Below are positions 7,803 to 19,351 of a stretch of DNA of 64,000 nt, piece by piece. Below the pieces are notes generated by a model that searched no databases, was not told the origin of the DNA, and saw only the letters and a program-made list of their open reading frames with translations. The position numbers and the translations under genes are program-made. The stretch is from IMG/VR virus record IMGVR_UViG_3300005686_000008; one strand, given 5' to 3'. The stretch's first letter is position 1, and each line of letters opens with the position of its first letter. The stretch comes from a virus (taxonomy: Duplodnaviria > Caudoviricetes).

Positions 7803-8434
7803 GCGTAATACTAGATACAATTTCCAAATCAATTAAGATAACTGATTATCTTGCTTCCAAGAATGTTTCATGGAATAGCCATGAGGGAGATAGATATAAA
7901 TACAGATGTCCTCTTCCTACTCATACAAAAGATAATACTCCATCTTTCTTTGTGTATGACAAACCTGATGGACAAGATTTTTATTGTTATGGATGTAAAT
8001 GCGCTGGAGGGATAGTCCAGCTTGTTTCTGCATATGAACAAATATCTATAAGGGATACAGTAGAGAGGCTTCTAAAAGGCCTCAATATAAATATTGATGA
8101 TGTAGTTGATTCTATAATCAGAGAAATAATCGTTTACTCTGAATCTGGTGATAAGGATGATAAAGATGAGGGAATCGTCGCTTCTTCACTGTTTATTAGT
8201 TCTCATATGCATGATTTCTTAACAAAAGTAGATTTCAACAGCGAAGACCTTGCAATTGCTGAAAAGGTGTTTGCTATGGTGGATTCTTATGTGCTGGTTG
8301 ACAGACTAGACGATTTAGAAAAACTAGCGAAAGCGATACCTGCAAGAACTAAGATAAGATACGAGATATATCTAGATAAAAAGAAGAGAGAAGAGATAGA
8401 AAAACTGAGAGGATCAAAAGTAAATGAGATATGA
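7799..8434 (+). CDS. stand-alone CHC2 zinc-finger (DnaG primase zinc-binding domain) protein
   Basis: CPLPTH.KDNTPSF...FYCYGCKCAGGIVQLV; no TOPRIM domain follows. Confidence 0.85.
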   Translation: MSVILDTISKSIKITDYLASKNVSWNSHEGDRYKYRCPLPTHTKDNTPSFFVYDKPDGQDFYCYGCKCAGGIVQLVSAYEQISIRDTVERLLKGLNINIDDVVDSIIREIIVYSESGDKDDKDEGIVASSLFISSHMHDFLTKVDFNSEDLAIAEKVFAMVDSYVLVDRLDDLEKLAKAIPARTKIRYEIYLDKKKREEIEKLRGSKVNEI

Positions 8435-9182
8435 GTTGCATAATACTGATTGCTTGAGTCTGTCAACAGATTTAGTAGATCTTGTTTATATGGACCCTCC
8501 GTATAGCTGCGAAGGCGAAGATGTATACTATGGAGAAGGTAAAACTTTTGATGACTTTATAACGTATATGCATAATCGTTTTGATAATATTCGAAAGTTA
8601 ATGAAGCCAAACTCTAGTATACTTGTTCATATGGATTATAAAGCTATTCATTACATAAAAGTTTTGATGGATGAAGTTTTTGGAAGAGAAAACTTCATGA
8701 ATGAAATAATATGGTGCTTTAGTAATCCTGCGAGTACAAAGAGATGGTTGCCGAGAAAGCATAATACTATTCTTTGGTATGGTCTTGGAAATTATACGTT
8801 TAACCAGCCTCGAATTCCATATAAAACGAAGATGAATGTTGGCGGAGATGCCGCATGGTCAAAAGAGAAGATTCCTTGGGAACATTACGAAAAAAGAGGT
8901 AAGCTGCTTGAGGACTGGTGGGTTGATATTCCTGCTATTTGCAGGAACGAGCCAGAAAAGAATGGATATGCAACGCAGAAGCCGTTGAAACTTATGGAAA
9001 GAGTTGTTGATATTTGGAGTAATCCTGGCGACAGGGTTTTGGACCCATTTTGCGGTAGCGGTTCATTGCTTGAAGCGGCAATAATTAAAAATAGATTTCC
9101 AGTTGGATGCGACAAAAATCAAAAGGCCCTAGAAATAGCAAAATCAAGACTTGAAGCGGTAAAAACGATTTTTTCGGAGTGA
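8424..9182 (+). CDS. DNA methyltransferase N6A/N4C (beta order)
   Basis: YMDPPY, NEIIW, YATQKP, VLDPFCGSG. Confidence 0.92.
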   Translation: MRYELHNTDCLSLSTDLVDLVYMDPPYSCEGEDVYYGEGKTFDDFITYMHNRFDNIRKLMKPNSSILVHMDYKAIHYIKVLMDEVFGRENFMNEIIWCFSNPASTKRWLPRKHNTILWYGLGNYTFNQPRIPYKTKMNVGGDAAWSKEKIPWEHYEKRGKLLEDWWVDIPAICRNEPEKNGYATQKPLKLMERVVDIWSNPGDRVLDPFCGSGSLLEAAIIKNRFPVGCDKNQKALEIAKSRLEAVKTIFSE

Positions 9183-10033
9183 TTATGAGTTTACTAAATA
9201 CTATTATACTAAGCGATGTACTTGATGGACTTAAGAAAATTCCAGATGAAAGCGTTCATATGGTTGTTTCTTCTCCACCGTACAATATAGATCTTAAGGG
9301 ATATGGCAATAGAAACGATAATGATCCTTATCATGTTTATGTTTCTTGGCTAAAGGATATATTCATTCAATGTAAAAGAATTCTTGTTGATGGAGGAAGA
9401 CTTGTCATCAATATAGATTCCGTTAGAAATCGTCAAGATGATGAAGAATATATGAGACCGATTGCTGGCGATTTAATAAACGCTGGTAGAGAAGTCGGAC
9501 TAAAGTATAGAACTGAAATTTGCTGGTACAAACAGAATTGGTCTGGTAGGGCTACCGCTTTTGGTTCGTATATGTCTTGTTCAAATCCTGCTATTAGAAG
9601 AAATCATGAGTATATTATGGTTTGGTCTAAGGGAAACTGGAAACTTGAGGGAGATCCAGAGCTTTCGGATATGACTTCAGAAGAGTTCCAGAATTGGACT
9701 TTTAGTACATGGTTTATTCAACCAGAAACAAGAAATCTCAACGATCATCCTGCTCCTTATCCAGAAGAATTAGTTAGAAGATTAGTCAAGCTATTTACAT
9801 ATAGGGGAAATACTGTTGTAGATCCATTCATGGGAACTGGAACGACAGGCGTTGTTGCTAAAGTTCTTGGTAGAAACTATATTGGTATTGATAATTCTCC
9901 TGATGATGTTGAGTTTGCTAAAAAGAGAATAGATTCTGTATCCAATATTTTTGATGATTATATTCCAAGATCTGATAGGATAAAGGCCGCAAAAAAGGAC
10001 GATATACAAACGGAGATGAACAAGGTTTTCTGA
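9179..10033 (+). CDS. DNA methyltransferase N4C/N6A (beta order)
   Basis: SSPPYN, HPAPYPEEL, VVDPFMGTGTT. Confidence 0.92.
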   Translation: MIMSLLNTIILSDVLDGLKKIPDESVHMVVSSPPYNIDLKGYGNRNDNDPYHVYVSWLKDIFIQCKRILVDGGRLVINIDSVRNRQDDEEYMRPIAGDLINAGREVGLKYRTEICWYKQNWSGRATAFGSYMSCSNPAIRRNHEYIMVWSKGNWKLEGDPELSDMTSEEFQNWTFSTWFIQPETRNLNDHPAPYPEELVRRLVKLFTYRGNTVVDPFMGTGTTGVVAKVLGRNYIGIDNSPDDVEFAKKRIDSVSNIFDDYIPRSDRIKAAKKDDIQTEMNKVF

Positions 10034-10697: not shown

Positions 10698-11277
10698 GTC
10701 TAATAAGAGAATAGATTTTGAATACGAGCATGAGAGCGGAGGAAATACTTACTCCATTTCTTTGAGGCTTTTTGAGTCTCAAGAATATGGCCCTTGCATA
10801 GGTTTGTTAGATGAAAATGGAGAGGTTGCAACATCTCTTCCTGTCGCTATGTTCCCAGAAGTAACAGAGTTTCTTGTTACTCAGGGTGTTATAGAGGGGA
10901 GAAGGCCATCAACTTCTCCTTCATTGCCTAAGCCTGTTGCTAAGCTTTCTGCTCCGGTTGCTCGTCCATCCCTTCCTAAGCCTCGCCTCGTTCAGTCTAA
11001 GCAGTCTGTAAATCCTCTTAAACCATCAAGAGAGGTTGTTATAGTTGATTTAGAAAATGATACTGGCGGAACAGAGGAAGAAGATACTATTAGACAGATA
11101 CAAGAAGCTGTAGAAGGAAGTAGCCCTGCAACATCTCTTGTTACTAAAGCCGAACAATCTCCGGTTATCTCTGATGAAGAGGCAAGGTTGATTTTGGAAG
11201 AAAGGCAGAACGCTATGAAGAAGGCTCAAACTGCCGCAAAGAGAATACGCAAAAAGTCTGATGAGGATGAAGAATGA
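10687..11277 (+). CDS. hypothetical protein with Pro-rich linker
   Basis: SD AGGAG; in-operon. Confidence 0.65.
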   Translation: MAIKSNKRIDFEYEHESGGNTYSISLRLFESQEYGPCIGLLDENGEVATSLPVAMFPEVTEFLVTQGVIEGRRPSTSPSLPKPVAKLSAPVARPSLPKPRLVQSKQSVNPLKPSREVVIVDLENDTGGTEEEDTIRQIQEAVEGSSPATSLVTKAEQSPVISDEEARLILEERQNAMKKAQTAAKRIRKKSDEDEE

Positions 11278-11525
11278 GTATCTACAAGTGTAAACTTGTT
11301 CCGCTTGATAGATTGCCGGTTGGTCCAGTTGGGGTTGTTTGTCCTCTTTGCAATGATTGCGAAACACGAGACTGTACCAACCCAATAGAACCAGTCAAGA
11401 TAACTGTTTTTGGTAGGCAGGTTAATTGGAAGATATATAAAAAGAGTCATATAGCATCTATAGTTGTTCAATGCGCAGGTTATAGTAAAGATAATGCCAT
11501 ATTACCAATATCAGATTCTGAATGA
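11274..11525 (+). CDS. small Cys-rich hypothetical protein
   Basis: CPLCNDC...C; ATGA overlap. Confidence 0.55.
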   Translation: MSIYKCKLVPLDRLPVGPVGVVCPLCNDCETRDCTNPIEPVKITVFGRQVNWKIYKKSHIASIVVQCAGYSKDNAILPISDSE

Positions 11526-11772
11526 TAAAGACGAGCCTACCGGCGAAGTCATAGAAATCTTTCAAAAGATGAGTGAAGATTCTCTAACTATAGATCCAGA
11601 AAGTGGCAAGAAGATTCGCAAAGCGATTACCGCTCCTGCTGTAAAAGATGGAAGGCCTGTGTGGGAAAGGTGTGCAGACGTAAGAGAACATCTGCGAAAC
11701 ACAAAACCTAAATGGGTTAATGACAAAGAAAAAGGCATAAGAGAAAGATTTGATCCTAAAAAACATACCTAG
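11494..11772 (+). CDS. FmdB-family zinc-ribbon-like protein lacking the Cys ligands
   Basis: MPYYQY...GEVIEIFQKMSEDSLTIDPESGKKIRKAI matches the FmdB pattern MPxYxYxCxxCG..FE..QKM....CPxCG without the Cys residues. Confidence 0.6.
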   Translation: MPYYQYQILNDKDEPTGEVIEIFQKMSEDSLTIDPESGKKIRKAITAPAVKDGRPVWERCADVREHLRNTKPKWVNDKEKGIRERFDPKKHT

Positions 11773-11780
11773 TGTTCTTG

Positions 11781-11808
11781 TAGGTATTGGATTTCTTTAG
11801 GACGATAA
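11781..11808 (+). promoter_or_regulatory. putative promoter TAGG-N16-GACGATAA, 6 nt before dnaE ATG
   Basis: Sigma28-like -10 (consensus GCCGATAA); no SD before ATG 11815. Confidence 0.5.
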
Positions 11809-11814
11809 TCAACC

Positions 11815-14352
11815 ATGACTAGAATCATAAGCAATAGTGATTTTGTGCATCTGCATAATCATTCCGAGTATTCGTCGTTTGATGGGCTGAATAAGATATC
11901 TCAGTTTCCAAAGGCTGCTAAGGAAATGGGATTTAAGGCCTTGGCCTTGACTGACCACGGTAATATTGGCGGCGCTATCAAGTTTATTCAAGAATGTAAT
12001 GGTATTGGAATAAAGCCTATTGTGGGATGTCTTCTTAGAGGACAAGAAATAGTTACCTCTAAAGGGATTAAATCTGTTGAGAATATCATAGAAGGTGATT
12101 TAGTCCTGACTCATAATGGAAGATTCCGTAAGGTATTGTCTACTTCCAGAAGAATCCATAATGGAAGTTTTTATACTCTTAAGTTTTCAGGACTAGGTAG
12201 GACTATAACCGTAACAGATGAGCATCCATTATTGGTTAGAACAATAGAAAATAAGGATATAGATAAAGCGGTTCCAGAACATTCTAATTTACTTAAATGG
12301 GTTCGAGCAGATCAATTGATAGCAGGAAGAACATCCAAAAAACTCGGTATGTCAACGTACAAAACTTACATATGTTTGCCAAAGCTTTTTGGAACGAATG
12401 AGGTTATAGATGTTCTCTCTTATATGCCGGAAAGATTAGGTTGTGTTGATGGTTTTATTTCAAAGATAGAAAAAATCAATAAATACGATTCATTAAAATC
12501 CTGGGATTTACCATGTGAGTTAAAACTGAATGAAGATATAAGCTATTTGCTTGGATTATTTGCTGCTGAAGGTTCTTTTTCTAGATATGAAGATCATTCA
12601 TTAAGTGGTGGTATAAGATTTTCTTTAGGAATTCATGAACAGGATTTGGCTGATAGAATTGCGGAAATTGTAGATAGATATTTTGGAATTGAAATAAATA
12701 TACAACCTAGACCTGAAAAAGGTGGAATAGAAATTAGTTTCGCTAGTTTGCCTCTTGCTTATTTATTTGAAGGACTTTGCGGTTCTGGTGCTACTGACAA
12801 AAAGGTTCCTTATGAAATTTTGACAGCTATTCCGAGTTTACGAAAAGCCTTTTTAGATGGGGTTCTTGATGGAGATGCCAAACAGGAAGGACAAAGAACT
12901 TTTAAGGTTATTTCTAAATCATTGGCTTGGGGTGTTAGGCAATTGCTGGCTGATTTAGGTCATTGGGCAACTGTTGCGGAAATAAAGCAAGAAAATAGTC
13001 AAATTGCATATGCTGTCCCTTATAATCCAGACAGGAAATATGCAAGAACGCTTCAAGACTCTCGCTATCTTTACAAGCCGTTGGTTTCCGTTTCAAAAAC
13101 AGAAGATGTTGCAGAAGTATTTAATTTTGAAGTAGAAGAAGACAATAGTTATGTTTCTGATTGCATTTTACATAATTGCGAGTTCTATCTTTCTAAGAAT
13201 CATAATCATAGAGGTGAAAAGAAAGAAGGCAACAAGATTATTGAAGGTCAGACTGATGGAAGGAAAGGCAACCGTCATCTTGTTTTAGTTGCCAAAAACT
13301 GGAAGGGTTGGCAAAACCTTTGTAGGCTATCTCAAAAGTCATGGACAGAGGGAGTATATATAGACCCTCGCATTGATATCCCTCTTCTTGCAGAGCATAG
13401 CGAAGGTCTTATGTGTAATTCTGCATGTTTGAGTAGCGTTGTTAATGCTAATCTTTTGCACGATAGATATGATCAGGCAAAGGCCGCTGTTGCTCTTTTC
13501 AAGGATATTTTCAAAGAAGATTTTCATCTAGAAGTTATGTATCACGGTATTGAAGCAGAGGGAGCTATTATACCTGACATAATCAAACTTGGCAATGAAA
13601 TGGGCGTTCCGATTATTGCAACAAATGATTGTCATTATTGCAAGAAAGAACATGGAATGTCTCAAGAGCTTCTTATGTGCATGAGTACGAGTAGGTGCTT
13701 AAACGATCCAAAGAGGCTTCACTTCCCTTATCGAGAGTTTTATCTTAAGTCTGCTCCTGAGATGGCTGTTGCTTTTGGTAATCATCCAGAGTTTCTTCTA
13801 AATACCGTGATGGTTGCTGATAAGGTTGATGCTAAGGATATATATGAAAATCTGACTTCTGGCATGAGGCTCCCAAGATATAAGATTCCCGAAGGATTTG
13901 CTTCTCCTTTTGATTTCCTTTCTCATCTTGCATGGGATGGAATGAAAAAGTTTGGATGGGATCAAAGTCAACCTCATATTGACAGATTGAAGAGAGAACT
14001 TGAAGACGTTCGAGTTGCTTGGGATAATAACAAATACGATTTCGCCACTTACTTCCTTATTGTGCGAGATTATATACAGAAGGCTAAGGATCAAAATATC
14101 CTCACTGGTTGCGGTAGAGGTTCTGGTTATGCTAGTGTTCTTCTGAGAGTTTTGGGCATTTCGTATGGGCCAGATCCATTGAAGTATGATTTGATTTGGG
14201 AAAGGTTTCTTGGTTTTGATGATAAGCATTTTATTCAGGATCAAGATTTCTTTGGAGAAGTTACTGTTAGTAAAGAAGATGCTTCTGGTCATGAGGAACT
14301 GTTTGAAGATAGAGATGTTACGGATGACGCGGGCGGCGTAGATAGGTATTGA
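11815..14352 (+). CDS. dnaE: DNA polymerase III alpha subunit, N-terminal part (PHP + start of palm), intein-containing
   Basis: HLHNHSEYS..DG, ALTDHG, KPIVG/CE, RHLVLVAKN..GWQNL, ATNDCHY, YFLIV.D, GRGSG, DPLKYDLIWERFL; ends before the catalytic PDID. Confidence 0.95.
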   Translation: MTRIISNSDFVHLHNHSEYSSFDGLNKISQFPKAAKEMGFKALALTDHGNIGGAIKFIQECNGIGIKPIVGCLLRGQEIVTSKGIKSVENIIEGDLVLTHNGRFRKVLSTSRRIHNGSFYTLKFSGLGRTITVTDEHPLLVRTIENKDIDKAVPEHSNLLKWVRADQLIAGRTSKKLGMSTYKTYICLPKLFGTNEVIDVLSYMPERLGCVDGFISKIEKINKYDSLKSWDLPCELKLNEDISYLLGLFAAEGSFSRYEDHSLSGGIRFSLGIHEQDLADRIAEIVDRYFGIEINIQPRPEKGGIEISFASLPLAYLFEGLCGSGATDKKVPYEILTAIPSLRKAFLDGVLDGDAKQEGQRTFKVISKSLAWGVRQLLADLGHWATVAEIKQENSQIAYAVPYNPDRKYARTLQDSRYLYKPLVSVSKTEDVAEVFNFEVEEDNSYVSDCILHNCEFYLSKNHNHRGEKKEGNKIIEGQTDGRKGNRHLVLVAKNWKGWQNLCRLSQKSWTEGVYIDPRIDIPLLAEHSEGLMCNSACLSSVVNANLLHDRYDQAKAAVALFKDIFKEDFHLEVMYHGIEAEGAIIPDIIKLGNEMGVPIIATNDCHYCKKEHGMSQELLMCMSTSRCLNDPKRLHFPYREFYLKSAPEMAVAFGNHPEFLLNTVMVADKVDAKDIYENLTSGMRLPRYKIPEGFASPFDFLSHLAWDGMKKFGWDQSQPHIDRLKRELEDVRVAWDNNKYDFATYFLIVRDYIQKAKDQNILTGCGRGSGYASVLLRVLGISYGPDPLKYDLIWERFLGFDDKHFIQDQDFFGEVTVSKEDASGHEELFEDRDVTDDAGGVDRY
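12028..13176 (+). mobile_element. intein with LAGLIDADG homing endonuclease in the DnaE PHP domain (383 aa)
   Basis: N-terminal CLLRGQEIVT, block B VTDEHP, LLGLFAAEG, FLDGVLDGD, block F/G VFNFEVEEDNSYV..CILHN followed by Cys+1; removal restores KPIVG-CEFY. Confidence 0.95.
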
Positions 14353-14362
14353 AAGGATAAAT

Positions 14363-14926
14363 ATGTCAAGCAAAATATCTTGGAAACATCCAAATGATAA
14401 TCATGGAGGAAGTGATAAAGGCAGGAGCGCTCAAGATATTGTTCGTGATTTTTTTGAAGCAAAAGGATGGACTGTAATAAAATCATCAAGAGAAGAAGAT
14501 CAATGCGGAATAGATTTTTACATAGAAGCCGGCGAGAAAAAATACTCTGTTGCGGTTTGCGGAACTTTTTACTACAAGATAAACAAAAATCATAACAGAT
14601 TGATATATTCTGGATACAAAACTGATAAGATTCCAGGCGTTAAGCATTCTAAAGCAGATATTGTTGTTTGTTATAATTCAAGTAATCCAGATTCTCTCTT
14701 TGTAGAGAAAAGAGTAAATATACTTGATTGGATTGAAAAGAATTATAAATCCTCTTTGGAAAAAGAAAACTTTTGCGATAAACCAGAAGAAATCCTTGTT
14801 ACTGGATTATTGCAAAAAAGATTAAGAAGTGAAACTGGCTATTATGATTTGTGGGCTTGTATACCTCTCTCGTTCTTTAGAAAAGTGGAGCGACCAAAAG
14901 AATCATATAAAGGACTTTTTGATTAA
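14363..14926 (+). CDS. PD-(D/E)XK nuclease-like protein, possibly degenerate
   Basis: GRSAQDIVRDFF..KGW.V..SSREEDQCGIDFYI; the expected (D/E)xK position reads AVC; SKAD. Confidence 0.45.
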   Translation: MSSKISWKHPNDNHGGSDKGRSAQDIVRDFFEAKGWTVIKSSREEDQCGIDFYIEAGEKKYSVAVCGTFYYKINKNHNRLIYSGYKTDKIPGVKHSKADIVVCYNSSNPDSLFVEKRVNILDWIEKNYKSSLEKENFCDKPEEILVTGLLQKRLRSETGYYDLWACIPLSFFRKVERPKESYKGLFD

Positions 14927-15777
14927 TGGCAGACACTATCATAAAAAGAGTTGGAGGCAAAGTGAAGATTAGAGATTGGATCATTAAGTTGCTTCCAGTT
15001 CATACTGTTTATTGCGAGCCATTTGGCGGCAGTTTTGCTGTTGGTTTTGCTATGCCACAGTCTGATGCTAATTATAGACTTGTATACAATGATTTAGATA
15101 GTCATGTTTGGAATCTTTTTAGAGTATTGCGAGACTATAAAGAAGAGTTTTTACAAAAAGTAGAACTTACTCTATATTCAAGAGAAGAATTAGAAAAAGC
15201 GGTTGAATACATTGAGTCTGAAAGAGATTTTATCAAAGAAAATCCTGTTGAATGGGCCAGAAATTATCTTATCTACAATAGACAGTCAATGTTTGGTAAA
15301 GAAGATGGAACTTGGTGTGTATCTAGAACAGGAGAGAATATTTGCTTGTCATGGGCTGCTCTTCCTGATTTTATTGATAGATGCGCTAAGTTCTTCAAGG
15401 GTGTATATATTGAAAATCTAGACTATATTGAATGTATTAAGAAATGGGATTGTCAAGAGACTTTGTTTTATCTTGATCCTCCATATAAGGATGTAGAGAA
15501 GGCCTTTTATCATGTTAATAAAACTGAAGGCTTTGATCATAAGGCTCTTTCTGAGGTTGTCAAAAAGATAGACGGAAGTTGTGCAATTTCATACTATGAT
15601 AGTCCTTTTATCCGATCTTTGTATACCGAGAGCGATGGTTTCGTATTTTATGAGAAAAATGTTGTAAAGCATATGCAGAAAATGGAAAAGAAATCATCAG
15701 CTACAGAAGTTTTGATTGTTAAGCAAAGTCGCTACGCAAAAGAAAAAGGTCGTACTGGAATGTGTTTTGGGGTTTAA
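14926..15777 (+). CDS. Dam-family DNA adenine methyltransferase
   Basis: GGK, YCEPFGGS, YNDLD, IENLDY, FYLDPPY, TEVLI. Confidence 0.92.
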   Translation: MADTIIKRVGGKVKIRDWIIKLLPVHTVYCEPFGGSFAVGFAMPQSDANYRLVYNDLDSHVWNLFRVLRDYKEEFLQKVELTLYSREELEKAVEYIESERDFIKENPVEWARNYLIYNRQSMFGKEDGTWCVSRTGENICLSWAALPDFIDRCAKFFKGVYIENLDYIECIKKWDCQETLFYLDPPYKDVEKAFYHVNKTEGFDHKALSEVVKKIDGSCAISYYDSPFIRSLYTESDGFVFYEKNVVKHMQKMEKKSSATEVLIVKQSRYAKEKGRTGMCFGV

Positions 15778-15778
15778 A

Positions 15779-17755
15779 ATGGCGGATATGAAGCAAGAAA
15801 TCCTTGATGCTGTAAAAGACAAGAGCCTTCTACCTTTGGTTGAGAAGGAGCTTGATATTATGGAAAAGACAGAGGGGCTTGATGATAAGCCTGTTCTACA
15901 AAAGTTTCATTTTATATGGAAGCACTCTGAAGGTAAAAAGGGTCATCGTAATGATATCAATTCATGGACGGCCTATGCTCTTGGGATGACTGATAAAAAG
16001 CCGGCGAATGATTCAAAGTTTTTGCCTAAACGTAGAGCTTTTGCTCGTAAGGGCTTTCCTGATATTGATTCCGATTTTGACTATGAGCGCAGAGAAGAGA
16101 TTTATAAGTATATCATAGATACATATGGAAGAGAAAACGTTGGAAACATTGGTACTTATTCTGCGCTGAAACTTCGATCATTTGTAACTAGAGCTGTCAA
16201 GGCGTTAGATCCGGAGAATTCGTTTTTCAAAGGGTATGATGCATGGAAGACGGAAACAAATCTTTTAGGCAGAGAAATTCTCGATTCTTTACCTCCCCAG
16301 TACGGAGCATTTCTAAAGATAGAGGGAGAGGATGGACAGGAACATGCGATTAAGACAGTCAAAGACGCTAATAAGTGGTGTGGCAAATTCGCTTACTACA
16401 TGCACAAATACCCTGACATATTACAACATTCAGATAGTATTGAGGGGCTATTATCAACTTTTGGAGTCCACGCTGCCGGTATTGTTATTTCTAGTGAGCC
16501 TCTAGCAGATATAGCTCCTTTGCGTCAAAGTAAGATTAAAGACGAAGATGCAGGAGATGATGGAGAGGTAAGGTTTGCTTTTGCAACACAGTTTGAGTAT
16601 AACGATCTAGAATTGCTTGGCCTAATCAAGTTTGATATTCTTGCTTTGAGTACATTGTCTGTTATAAATCAATGTTGCAAACTTGTTGAGCAAAACTATG
16701 GGATCAAGGTTGATATTTGGAACTTGCCTTTAGATGATAAGAAAACATTCGACCTATATAAAAGCGGCAAGTTGACTGGTGTATTCCAATGCGAAGAGCC
16801 GGGAATGCAAAAGGCTATGGTGAGAATCAAGGTTGATTCTCTTGATGATATCATGGCTGGTATTTCTTTGTATCGCCCCGGTCCAATGGAGTCTATTCCA
16901 ACATATTGTAATAGAAAAGATGGAACTGAAAGTATGAGTTATTTTCATCCGTCTTTGAGACAGTATATTGAACCTCATGTGAAAAAGACATACGGTTTAC
17001 TTGTTTATCAAGAACAGGTAATGCAGATTTGTAACTCTGTAGCAGGATTCTCGATTCCCGAAGGCTACGTTGTTATTAAGGCAATTGGTAAGAAGAAGCC
17101 AGAGTTGCTTGCTAAGTATAGAGCAAGGTTTATATCTGGCGCAAAAGAAAATGGTATTGAAGAGTCTGTTTCTGCTGGTTACTGGGATAAGGTAATCATG
17201 CCGTTTGCTGATTATGGCTTTAATAAGGCGCATGCTTGTTGTTACGCATACAATTCTTATATTACCGCTTACCTTAAGGCTCATTATCCAGAAGAATTCC
17301 TTACCGCATATCTGAATGTTGAGATTAACAGGTCTAAATATGAAAAGGTAGAAACTCTTGAGAAGATGGCTAACGAAATGGATATAGAGATTCTTCCAAG
17401 ACAGATAAACCAGTGTAAGTTAGAATATATGATTGTAAACAAAGCGGACCCTGCAAATGGGATTCCTCGCTCTCAAATCATGCCTTCTATCAAGTGTAAG
17501 GGTTTGAGTAAGAATGCTGCTGATGATATAGTTTCCAAACAGCCGTTTACAGATTTGGCAGACTTTGCAGAAAAAACAGATACAAAAATGGTTGATATGA
17601 AGGCTTTTGAGTCCTTATTGGCTGCTGGATTTTTCAGGCCTAAACAGGGAAGGGGTCAAAGCAGCGAGACGATAATGAAGAAATTTGAGATTATACGAGA
17701 AGATCTCAAGAAAGCACGAAAAAAGGGAGTTCCGATAGGGAACATATTTGGGTGA
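15779..17755 (+). CDS. dnaE: DNA polymerase III alpha subunit, C-terminal part (catalytic palm, thumb, fingers, HhH; no OB fold)
   Basis: PDIDSDF, GVHAAGIVI, GLIKFDILAL, GVFQCE, SLYRPGPM, VYQEQVM, YGFNKAHA, YLKAHYPEEF. Confidence 0.95.
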   Translation: MADMKQEILDAVKDKSLLPLVEKELDIMEKTEGLDDKPVLQKFHFIWKHSEGKKGHRNDINSWTAYALGMTDKKPANDSKFLPKRRAFARKGFPDIDSDFDYERREEIYKYIIDTYGRENVGNIGTYSALKLRSFVTRAVKALDPENSFFKGYDAWKTETNLLGREILDSLPPQYGAFLKIEGEDGQEHAIKTVKDANKWCGKFAYYMHKYPDILQHSDSIEGLLSTFGVHAAGIVISSEPLADIAPLRQSKIKDEDAGDDGEVRFAFATQFEYNDLELLGLIKFDILALSTLSVINQCCKLVEQNYGIKVDIWNLPLDDKKTFDLYKSGKLTGVFQCEEPGMQKAMVRIKVDSLDDIMAGISLYRPGPMESIPTYCNRKDGTESMSYFHPSLRQYIEPHVKKTYGLLVYQEQVMQICNSVAGFSIPEGYVVIKAIGKKKPELLAKYRARFISGAKENGIEESVSAGYWDKVIMPFADYGFNKAHACCYAYNSYITAYLKAHYPEEFLTAYLNVEINRSKYEKVETLEKMANEMDIEILPRQINQCKLEYMIVNKADPANGIPRSQIMPSIKCKGLSKNAADDIVSKQPFTDLADFAEKTDTKMVDMKAFESLLAAGFFRPKQGRGQSSETIMKKFEIIREDLKKARKKGVPIGNIFG

Positions 17756-17781
17756 AATGAGAATTTAGACAAACAAGAGTT

Positions 17782-17789
17782 GTCGAAGC
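17782..17789 (+). promoter_or_regulatory. putative -10 element (GTCGAAGC), 6 nt before ATG 17796
   Basis: Same motif and spacing as at 5375 and 11801. Confidence 0.35.
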
Positions 17790-17795
17790 AAGAGA

Positions 17796-18122
17796 ATGGA
17801 GAATTCTATGTCAGCAGAACAGCAAATAAGAAAATCAACGATTACCAAGAGTATAACTAGAAAGTATAACGTTGCTAGGTTTGAAACTTTGGACGTTATG
17901 ATTCAACATGAACACGAAATCGAATGGGATTCTATTGCTACTCTCAAGTCAAAGAGCAATAACATTACAACTTTGATTAGGGAAGATTTTGAAGATACTG
18001 CTAATAGGGTTTTGACAGAGCTACAGCTTAATGGATATAAGGCTTTTGTTACAAATACCCAAGAAAATAACAAAAGACCAATGACTCCGGAAGAAAAGAA
18101 AGATTTTGACGCTCTTGGTTGA
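17796..18122 (+). CDS. hypothetical protein
   Basis: ORF track; fills the gap after dnaE. Confidence 0.6.
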   Translation: MENSMSAEQQIRKSTITKSITRKYNVARFETLDVMIQHEHEIEWDSIATLKSKSNNITTLIREDFEDTANRVLTELQLNGYKAFVTNTQENNKRPMTPEEKKDFDALG

Positions 18123-18139
18123 AGTTAAAGGAAGAAGCA

Positions 18140-19351
18140 ATGCCGATAAACGATACTCTTGATGACATTTTTGGTATCCCCAAGGATGGCTCAAATATAA
18201 AAGAAGAAGCAGATGAAAGTCAAGAATCTTCTTATGCAGAGGTTGTTACTAACGTTAGTGCTGAAACGTTTGAACAAAAAGCTAAGAAGATGAGCGCCGT
18301 TTTGCCTAAAAACGCTTCTAATATTGAGGTTTCTTATGTAGAAAAAGGGGGGCAAGATGCCTCGAAAAAAGAAACAACCCAATCAACAGAGCAGCCAAAG
18401 GCAGAAGAAAAATCTAAAGCAGCAGAACAGCCAAGACCAGTCGAGCAAGAAAAAAGTAAGGACTCCTTTAAAGAAATACTGTCAAAGTCATTTCTCGGTG
18501 GAGAGCCTACCCCTAGCGAGGTACAACCCGTGGTGCAAAAACAAGCCGTTGATAATCAAGATACAGAGCCTGGAGAAGATGCTCAAGAGGAGAGCGAAAC
18601 AGTTTCCCAAGTAACTCCTTCGTATAAAGCAGATCCAGATGAAGATGGATGGATGCTTGTTGCCCCGTCTCCAATGCTTATTTCATTCTATGTTGAAAAA
18701 CAAAGATTTATTCGAGACCTTACGAAGGGTAAAAAGCCAATAAATGTAGATAAGTTACTTGCAGAGCTTGAAAATTCAACAGTAAGTATTCGTGTTGAAA
18801 TATCTGATTTACATGGTATGTCAGATAAGCTTACGACGATTCAAAGTTTTTTGGATAGGGTTGTCCAAATAAAGATTCTTGCAACAGGACAATGCGCTGC
18901 TTGTAAGAGAGGCGTAGAGCTTCTTAGGGGAGTTCTTGCTAGGGTTCTTCATGAAAAGCCAGCAGCAAAGCAAGATGGTATCATATATGAACATATGAGA
19001 GATGTTGAAATGTATGCTGCTAAAGTAGAATCTTTGGAACAATCTGCTAAGGATGTTTATCATAATCTTCTAGAAGCAAAAGAAATACTAAGTAGGAAGT
19101 TGAGTATTTCAATCGAACTTATGAAACAGCAAAATTTGCCGAATTCCTTAGAAAAGAATTATAATGCTCTACCAGACCCTGTAAAGCAGGCTATACAAGC
19201 CTCACAAAAGTCATTATCTTCAGGAAAATTGGCCGCTGAGGGGTTCGATAGCCTAGAAGTACAAGAGACCGTGAAAGCTCAAAATACAGAGGTAAAACCT
19301 CCGATACAGAAGAAGGCCGGAAAGTTGAATGAAGACTTTAGTATGGACTGA
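18140..19351 (+). CDS. hypothetical protein, disordered acidic N-half and helical C-half (possible recombination mediator)
   Basis: Low-complexity N-terminus, coiled-coil-like C-terminus, upstream of SSB/RecA. Confidence 0.6.
   Translation: MPINDTLDDIFGIPKDGSNIKEEADESQESSYAEVVTNVSAETFEQKAKKMSAVLPKNASNIEVSYVEKGGQDASKKETTQSTEQPKAEEKSKAAEQPRPVEQEKSKDSFKEILSKSFLGGEPTPSEVQPVVQKQAVDNQDTEPGEDAQEESETVSQVTPSYKADPDEDGWMLVAPSPMLISFYVEKQRFIRDLTKGKKPINVDKLLAELENSTVSIRVEISDLHGMSDKLTTIQSFLDRVVQIKILATGQCAACKRGVELLRGVLARVLHEKPAAKQDGIIYEHMRDVEMYAAKVESLEQSAKDVYHNLLEAKEILSRKLSISIELMKQQNLPNSLEKNYNALPDPVKQAIQASQKSLSSGKLAAEGFDSLEVQETVKAQNTEVKPPIQKKAGKLNEDFSMD

Follow-up and report, generated by a model that had tools for sequence, protein, structure and literature searches.

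The present analysis deals with a replicative DNA polymerase of the C family (Pol III alpha, gene dnaE) that is encoded in two pieces by a huge phage (Duplodnaviria; Caudoviricetes). The DNA analysed, called the window, is a stretch of 64,000 nucleotides from IMG/VR record IMGVR_UViG_3300005686_000008. C-family polymerases replicate bacterial chromosomes and have been studied as single alpha chains. The + strand of the window has four closely packed genes in the order dnaE part 1, ORF187, Dam and dnaE part 2, and the stop codon of Dam lies one base before the ATG of part 2. A scan for promoters and terminators gave no significant excess over shuffled sequence. The division falls within the palm domain, so that the GRGS nucleotide-binding loop is encoded by part 1 and the catalytic aspartates by part 2. 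The features of the two dnaE genes are as follows (palm-N, N-terminal half of the palm; HhH, helix-hairpin-helix).

11815..14352, + strand: dnaE part 1, 845 amino acids with its intein and 462 after the predicted splicing; PHP domain and N-terminal half of the palm
13987..14250, + strand: palm-N copy A, comprising helix LKRELEDV, helix YFLIV, the GRGS loop, WERFL and an invariant DF at 14245-14250
14113-14124: GRGS loop, part 1 residues 767-770
14197-14211: WERFL, part 1 residues 795-799
14251..14349, + strand: variable acidic linker, then the conserved C-terminal peptide RDVTDDAGGVDRY (14311-14349); part 1 ends GGVDRY and a stop follows
15779..17755, + strand: dnaE part 2, 658 amino acids; palm-N copy B, catalytic palm, thumb, fingers and HhH domain
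15779..16048, + strand: palm-N copy B, part 2 residues 1-90; helix-helix-loop-helix as in copy A, with GHRNDINS in place of GRGS
16058..16078, + strand: PDIDSDF, with catalytic aspartates D97 and D99, which are E. coli D401 and D403 by alignment
16628..16642, + strand: KFDIL, with the third catalytic aspartate D286 and with K284
17738..17752, + strand: C-terminal GNIFG, a possible sliding-clamp-binding motif

The Pfam matches of the two proteins divide one polymerase between them. Part 1 matches PHP (PF02811, E 1.8e-39) and positions 2-98 of the 260 positions of the DNA_pol3_alpha profile, and part 2 matches positions 69-260 of the same profile, the fingers (PF17657, E 2e-52) and HHH_6 (PF14579, E 2.8e-9). 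The PDIDSDF of part 2 was aligned by phmmer with PDIDTDF of Taq, and K284 and D286 of KFDIL presumably correspond to K553 and D555 of E. coli. Together the two polypeptides carry the PHP domain, the palm with its GS loop and three aspartates, the fingers and the HhH domain of a C-family enzyme. They do not form the single polypeptide of an E. coli-type DnaE1, since the two open reading frames (ORFs) lie 1.4 kb apart. These profile and motif positions bear out the original prediction, made from the DNA sequence alone, that a DnaE is fractured inside its palm, that part 1 runs through GRGS and WERFL into an acidic tail and a stop, and that PDIDSDF is encoded downstream in part 2.

At the C-terminal end of part 2, Pfam identified no further domains after the HhH domain, neither the OB fold nor the tau-binding C-terminal domain, and the chain ends where residues ~911-927 of E. 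coli alpha align. The family-wide C-terminus of part 2 is x[DN][IML]F[GEQA]. The last residue of the part 2 structure model aligned to E. coli alpha 924-927, which we take to be the site of the internal beta-binding motif QADMF, and the tail of part 2 may thus bind the clamp. An alternative start of part 2 at TTG 15716 was rejected; it is at the ATG at 15779 (MADMKQ) that the protein starts in the relatives and in the database copy.

Relatives were drawn from IMG/VR and from protein collections. A megablast search of the region against GenBank phages gave no match. The IMG/VR scan identified thirteen relatives on contigs of 39-499 kb, 11 of which (L002-L008, L010, L011, L015 and L036; 47-80% identity in part 2) are cut at the same point. 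In a large protein collection, all of the best 120 clusters for part 1 were part-1-type proteins, with 430-500 residues, at least 54% identity, a PHP domain and the start of DNA_pol3_alpha. More than 100 of the best 120 clusters for part 2 were likewise part-2-type proteins (about 616-683 residues), on contigs of up to 0.5 Mb.

The residues of the active site are conserved in both sets of proteins. In 104 part-1 sequences GRGSG, the W and RFL of WERFL, and the F and final D of the invariant DF were invariant; copy A was the best-conserved stretch of part 1 and the linker after DF was poorly conserved. In 111 part-2 sequences P94, D95, D97 and D99 were invariant, as were K284 and D286. Within copy B, E24, N58, P75 and R90 were invariant and G55, N61, S62 and A65 nearly so. 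Judging from these alignments, both palm-N copies are under selection. Beyond the palm, about 80 of the 120 part-1 clusters have a variable acidic stretch and then GG[VIT]DRY as their last residues; other clusters end directly after the invariant DF. The GGVDRY tail resembles a docking peptide on a tether.

Part 2 opens with ~85-90 residues that are paralogous to the palm segment at the end of part 1; they have diverged from it but are themselves conserved. Copy B has the same order of elements as a fused phage DnaE: a long helix (EKELD in copy B, RLEYEL in the fused protein), a second helix, a loop, SWTAYALGMT (SLVAYALGIT) and FLPKRR (ERFLNPER). The loop itself reads GHRNDINS in copy B and GRGSGAGS in the canonical form. 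Only the leader was used in this comparison, which kept the downstream palm from driving the match. By hhalign, a profile of 109 part 2 leaders matched a profile of 30 canonical palm-N segments with a probability of 93% (P 2.9e-7, score 41.8), and the controls scored 11.0 for the reversed leader and 15.2 for the best of 20 column-shuffled leaders. Copy A matched canonical palm-N with an hhalign E of 2.4e-30. In addition, phmmer aligned part 2 residues 54-134 to Taq alpha 422-502, and the isolated leader had no match in Pfam. The degenerate second palm copy at the start of part 2 that had been read from the sequence is thus a homologue of palm-N.

Structure models were used to place the two chains on the canonical fold. 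The halves were folded separately; in two alignments MAFFT stacked the palm-N of part 1 onto the columns of copy B, which would bias a model of the fused protein P0212. For part 1 the intein-free orthologue of L002 (86-89% identical) was modelled, with a predicted local distance difference test (pLDDT) score of 87, an ordered chain to residue ~420 and a tail below 55. Its residues 6-427 align to E. coli alpha 1-398 (Z 36.9), Taq alpha 5-461 (Z 39.4) and Mycobacterium tuberculosis (Mtb) DnaE1 7-419 (Z 40.2), and the structural Z scores of part 1 against Pol III alpha were 33-40. For part 2, AlphaFold2 with a part-2-only alignment gave a mean pLDDT of 89. Residues 85-89 to ~650 of its 658 residues align to E. 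coli alpha 391-911/927 (Z 26-28). Among the 11 DnaE-type Pol III alpha entries at ranks 1-11 (Z 22-28), the alignment begins at 391-395 in E. coli, at 392-393 in Taq (456 in 4iqj) and at 411-414 in Mtb; one entry (2hnh) gives a chain range from 330. In these models, therefore, the two chains tile canonical alpha, and the seam between them falls at E. coli ~391-398, shortly ahead of D401. The alignment of both halves to the E. coli and Taq enzymes had been proposed with the original prediction, and its outcome, with motifs invariant in more than 100 sequences of each part, agrees with the two-chain C-family polymerase proposed there.

The models also describe the two palm-N copies, which have the same order of secondary-structure elements. 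The part 2 leader (residues 1-80, pLDDT ~90) forms helices at residues 2-11, 15-30, 39-49 and 63-67, followed by a softer hinge at residues 81-100. Copy B is confidently folded yet lies off the canonical palm-N site, in a model with chain 1 absent and with no canonical sequences in the alignment. In part 1, the nine metal-ligand positions of the PHP domain are conserved. The consensus of active proofreading PHP domains is H H D H E H C D H (Table 1, PMC3666897). The conservation of all nine ligands suggests that the PHP domain of chain 1 is probably a proofreading exonuclease.

A search for fused orthologues that carry the duplicated segment had also been proposed, and such proteins exist. They are P0212 (1106 amino acids) and, from a full-library search with P0212 as the query, P0242, P0243, P0244, P0247 and P0259, single chains in which PHP, copy A, a linker of 20-35 residues, copy B and the remainder of the polymerase follow one another. 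In P0212 and P0259, Pfam reads copy A as the true N-terminal part of the domain and copy B as an insertion. A second fused type (L009 and P0241) is without copy B. Within copy A of P0244, an intein lies inside GRG|S.

A tree of the C-terminal 552 columns was rooted on 14 canonical phage DnaEs. The duplication-bearing forms group together with 97% support, and the two deepest branches among them are fused (P0259 and P0247). Since the single-chain two-copy forms branch deepest, the duplication came first. P0212 is the sister of the split P0213 with 100% support, and the other fused forms are scattered among the split ones. Thus, one-chain and two-chain forms interconvert easily, which suggests that the one-chain and two-chain enzymes work alike. 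The fused forms without copy B are nested inside the duplication-bearing clade. Approximately unbiased (AU) tests rejected both a clade of duplication-bearing forms that excludes L009 and P0241 (log-likelihood difference 124, p 2.6e-4) and a single clade of split forms (log-likelihood difference 174, p 4.6e-6). The simplest history is a tandem duplication of palm-N in a single-chain ancestor, fission in the linker between the copies, several later fissions or re-fusions, and one loss of copy B.

We consider it likely that the replicative C-family polymerase of this phage consists of two gene products that assemble non-covalently. Chain 1 would first shed its LAGLIDADG intein by protein splicing and would then supply the PHP domain with its nine ligands and, from the palm, the N-terminal half that bears the GRGS nucleotide-binding loop. 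Chain 2 would supply the three catalytic aspartates, the thumb, the fingers and the HhH/clamp-binding domain. The chains would associate through a surface that is intramolecular in an ordinary DnaE, and this would bring GRGS next to D97, D99 and D286, so that catalysis would occur in trans. The break falls at a natural seam between the nucleoside triphosphate (NTP)-binding and metal-binding subdomains. Copy B, which is without GRGS but conserved and folded, most likely would brace or dock chain 1 rather than bind nucleotide. Copy B would probably add binding surface, as would the C-terminal peptide R[DE]V..D.GGVDRY in about two thirds of lineages. Under this proposal, an ancestor of the phage DnaE subfamily would have duplicated palm-N in tandem, the gene would later have been cut in the linker between the copies, cutting and re-joining would have taken place several times, and the gap would then have become a landing site for cargo, here ORF187 and Dam.

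Several points weigh against this reading. First, the AlphaFold predictions are of each chain singly, and the position of copy B relative to the core depends on the hinge, which has a pLDDT of ~70. Secondly, copy B matches copy A of the same clade weakly (hhalign E 0.064), so the claim of a duplication rests on the match of copy B to canonical palm-N. Third, the trees come from quick IQ-TREE searches, and the simpler LG+G4 model was used for the AU tests. Lastly, the database proteins were called split by their length and domain content, and genomic context was seen for 12 loci.

A more specific form of the proposal can be put forward tentatively. The nucleotidyl-transfer centre may be built from two polypeptides that are held together by a pair of paralogous subdomains. 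Duplication would have given an internal pseudo-dimer of copy A with copy B, and this would have made the gene safe to cut and chain 1 an exchangeable subunit, with GGVDRY as a second clasp. We regard this as possible, on balance doubtful. If it is true, the enzyme would be a natural example of a "duplicate, then split" route to multi-subunit enzymes.

The alternative that survives best is a self-sufficient chain 2 in which copy B serves as the nucleotide-binding subdomain, with chain 1 as a PHP proofreading subunit whose palm-N is a docking handle. Copy B is homologous to the GS-loop region, conserved (E24, N58, P75 and R90) and confidently folded, and chain 2 thus has every topological element of a palm. 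However, copy B has G..N.INS instead of GRGS, and the model keeps it off the canonical site. The invariant GRGSG of copy A, and the position of copy A as the best-conserved stretch of chain 1, would be hard to explain for a mere handle. In the fused forms Pfam picks copy A and not copy B, and it is in the GRG|S of copy A that the intein of P0244 sits. For these reasons, we think this alternative unlikely.

The genes between the halves suggest a second alternative, which had been raised in the original prediction: the insertion of ORF187 and Dam, as a selfish restriction-modification-like or homing element, would have broken a dnaE that was intact before. Known phage genes that are split around a free-standing endonuclease gene include T4 gp39/gp60 with mobA and Aeh1 nrdA with mobE, and the present locus is like them in having an essential gene in two pieces with mobile-looking genes between. 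The cargo is also located precisely at the break, a nuclease-like ORF with a D..EVK pattern stands beside Dam in the nearest relatives, and a homologue of ORF187 lies in the gap of L015. Unlike in those genes, the break here is independent of the inserted genes. Among the eleven split relatives, all broken at the same point, the DNA between the halves ranges from an 8-nt overlap of the halves (L006) to 2.9 kb (L007). In L002-L004 the gap holds Dam with an unrelated D..EVK ORF, in L005 it holds a protease-like gene, in L007 and L011 several small ORFs and in L015 the ORF187 homologue; the gaps of L008 and L036 have no ORF. Since the split point is constant while the content of the gap varies, ORF187 and Dam are cargo in a pre-existing intergenic gap and not the cause of the break. 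Duplication and fission are also older than the cargo, given that the fused two-copy forms are the deepest branches of the tree. Fracture of the gene by the cassette is therefore very improbable, and this part of the original prediction is not upheld.

A third alternative is that the halves are rejoined by an intron, by trans-splicing or by an unrecognised split intein, so that the mature enzyme is one chain. There is a precedent in cyanobacterial dnaE (cited in PMC3919608), which is in two genes whose products are joined by protein trans-splicing, and inteins are present in this genome. The dnaE of the window is also in two genes, but it has no Hint domain at the break, and the fused relatives keep both ends as ordinary sequence. 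Pfam identified no Hint domain at the tail of part 1 or in the leader of part 2. Rfam searches of 11000-18500 at permissive thresholds identified no intron and gave only one sub-threshold match, to a CRISPR repeat. The earlier statement that no split intein flanks the break agrees with these searches. In addition, the gap consists of two ORFs, of which Dam is conserved as a protein in relatives, and some relatives have no chain 1 tail. Rejoining is hardly credible on this evidence. Least probable of all is that dnaE is a decaying pseudogene in a phage that uses another polymerase; the break itself is all that favours this, and both halves are intact ORFs with catalytic residues that are invariant across more than 100 clusters.

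The non-covalent two-chain enzyme can be compared with several known polymerases. The Taq and M. tuberculosis Pol III alpha structures (2hpi, 3e0d, 5lew and 7pu7) have the same fold that is covered by the two models (Z 25-40) and share the nine PHP ligands. Unlike canonical DnaE1, the window enzyme is encoded as two chains and has palm-N in an additional, paralogous copy; it lacks the OB and tau-binding domains and ends at the position of the clamp motif. Split replicative polymerases of family B also exist in phages, for example the split gp43 of some T4-related phages. The family B polymerase of PhiKZ is split into DNAP-N and DNAP-C, which form a 1:1 complex (Basu et al. 2026 preprint, PMC13648687). 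The likeness is that of a phage replicative polymerase whose two chains associate non-covalently, here as a proposal; the family and fold differ, and the family B breaks have no duplication beside them.

The closest likeness is to the minimal Pol III alpha of the group 2.2 (T4-like) jumbo phages, which is split into an NTP-binding protein and a Mg/DNA-binding protein and is presumed to be reconstituted without splicing (Iyer et al. 2021, PMC7824862). Both enzymes have the same seam, with the C-family module in two proteins. The minimal enzyme has neither PHP nor the remaining domains, is encoded at two loci far apart and occurs alongside a family B replicase. The window enzyme, in contrast, is full-size from PHP to HhH, its genes are neighbours and its break lies between tandem palm-N copies. 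In a literature search, incomplete for subscription journals, no description was found of a full-size, PHP-bearing DnaE split between duplicated palm copies.

A further split was identified on a 438-kb contig (L045:5355-10628). This DnaE groups with the canonical forms, has no duplicated segment and is cut cleanly at Pfam profile positions 98/100, with a clamp-loader gene (phrog_5846, E 6e-59) between the halves. It looks like a third, independent cut at this joint. Because the same cut occurs in this protein and in the minimal enzyme of the T4-like jumbo phages, the seam is a structural joint of the family.

These results matter for several reasons. First, the subfamily occurs widely among phages whose genomes reach ~0.5 Mb, and it places the nucleotide-binding loop and the catalytic aspartates on different proteins. 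Secondly, one-chain and two-chain versions stand side by side in the tree, which offers a system for studying how a cut polymerase active site is tolerated, what the role of the extra palm paralogue is and how gene fission follows internal duplication. Lastly, for annotation, the fragments of ~450 and ~650 amino acids labelled "DNA polymerase III alpha" that are common in metagenomes are not broken genes.

Part 1 also contains an intein, which the original prediction did not mention:

12028..13176, + strand: class-1 intein with LAGLIDADG endonuclease, 383 amino acids, part 1 residues 72-454, complete

The segment matches LAGLIDADG_3, Hint_2 and Intein_splicing in Pfam and has Cys1, TDEHP (the TxxH of block B), two LAGLIDADG blocks and a terminal HN followed by Cys+1. 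With these motifs it qualifies as a class 1 LAGLIDADG intein, and splicing is predicted. It is inserted in the PHP domain between KPIVG and CEFY, one residue before metal ligand 5 (Glu). Most orthologues are without exactly residues 72-454 and have residues 1-72 joined directly to residues 455-845. L015 has an intein at the same PHP site and most other relatives have none. More inteins or insertions were observed at other conserved sites in L009, L010, L015, L036, P0160 and P0236, several of them after YGFN in the fingers or near part 2 residue 240.

The two genes between the halves are the following:

14363..14926, + strand: ORF187, 187 amino acids, cargo gene
14926..15777, + strand: Dam-type D12-class N6-adenine DNA methyltransferase, 283 amino acids (PF02086, E 9.8e-27, cut-off 22 bits), cargo gene

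The Pfam match confirms the Dam-like methyltransferase that had been recognised between the halves; the protein also matches phrog_56 (E 2e-54), and FGGSF and DPPY motifs are present in the translation. Its orthologues, with 68-77% identity, lie in the same gap of L002-L004, and among the relatives Dam is found only in these nearest three. ORF187 had no match in Pfam, PHROG, NCBIfam or the PDB. Its homologues are one 99% copy and the protein of 27% identity in the same gap of the distant L015. The nearest named Atlas clusters are NOV_C and PDDEXK_14, both weak, and a GID motif is common to ORF187 and the L015 protein, with no ExK after GID. The assignment of ORF187 as a PD-(D/E)XK nuclease is thus a weak lead.

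Other genes were observed near dnaE in the relatives. In the three relatives with Dam, the neighbour of Dam is a different ORF (L002:6635-7147, L003:5770-6294 and L004:5067-5684) with the D...EVK pattern typical of PD-(D/E)XK nucleases, and the gaps of L003 and L004 also hold one or two paralogous ORFs of 195-216 amino acids. The gap gene of L005 (7412-8032) matches head-maturation/ClpP-like proteases (phrog_94, E 5e-33). In L007:2612-7955, and among ORFs near dnaE in L005, L008, L009, L010 and L036, many small ORFs share a C-terminal motif (variants RFEILDI, RFNIMDL, RFDILDF and TRWDLIDV), which resembles a common tag on otherwise unrelated small proteins. In the window itself, two more DNA methyltransferase-like genes, with DPPY and SPPY motifs, lie at 8424-10033, just upstream of the replication genes.

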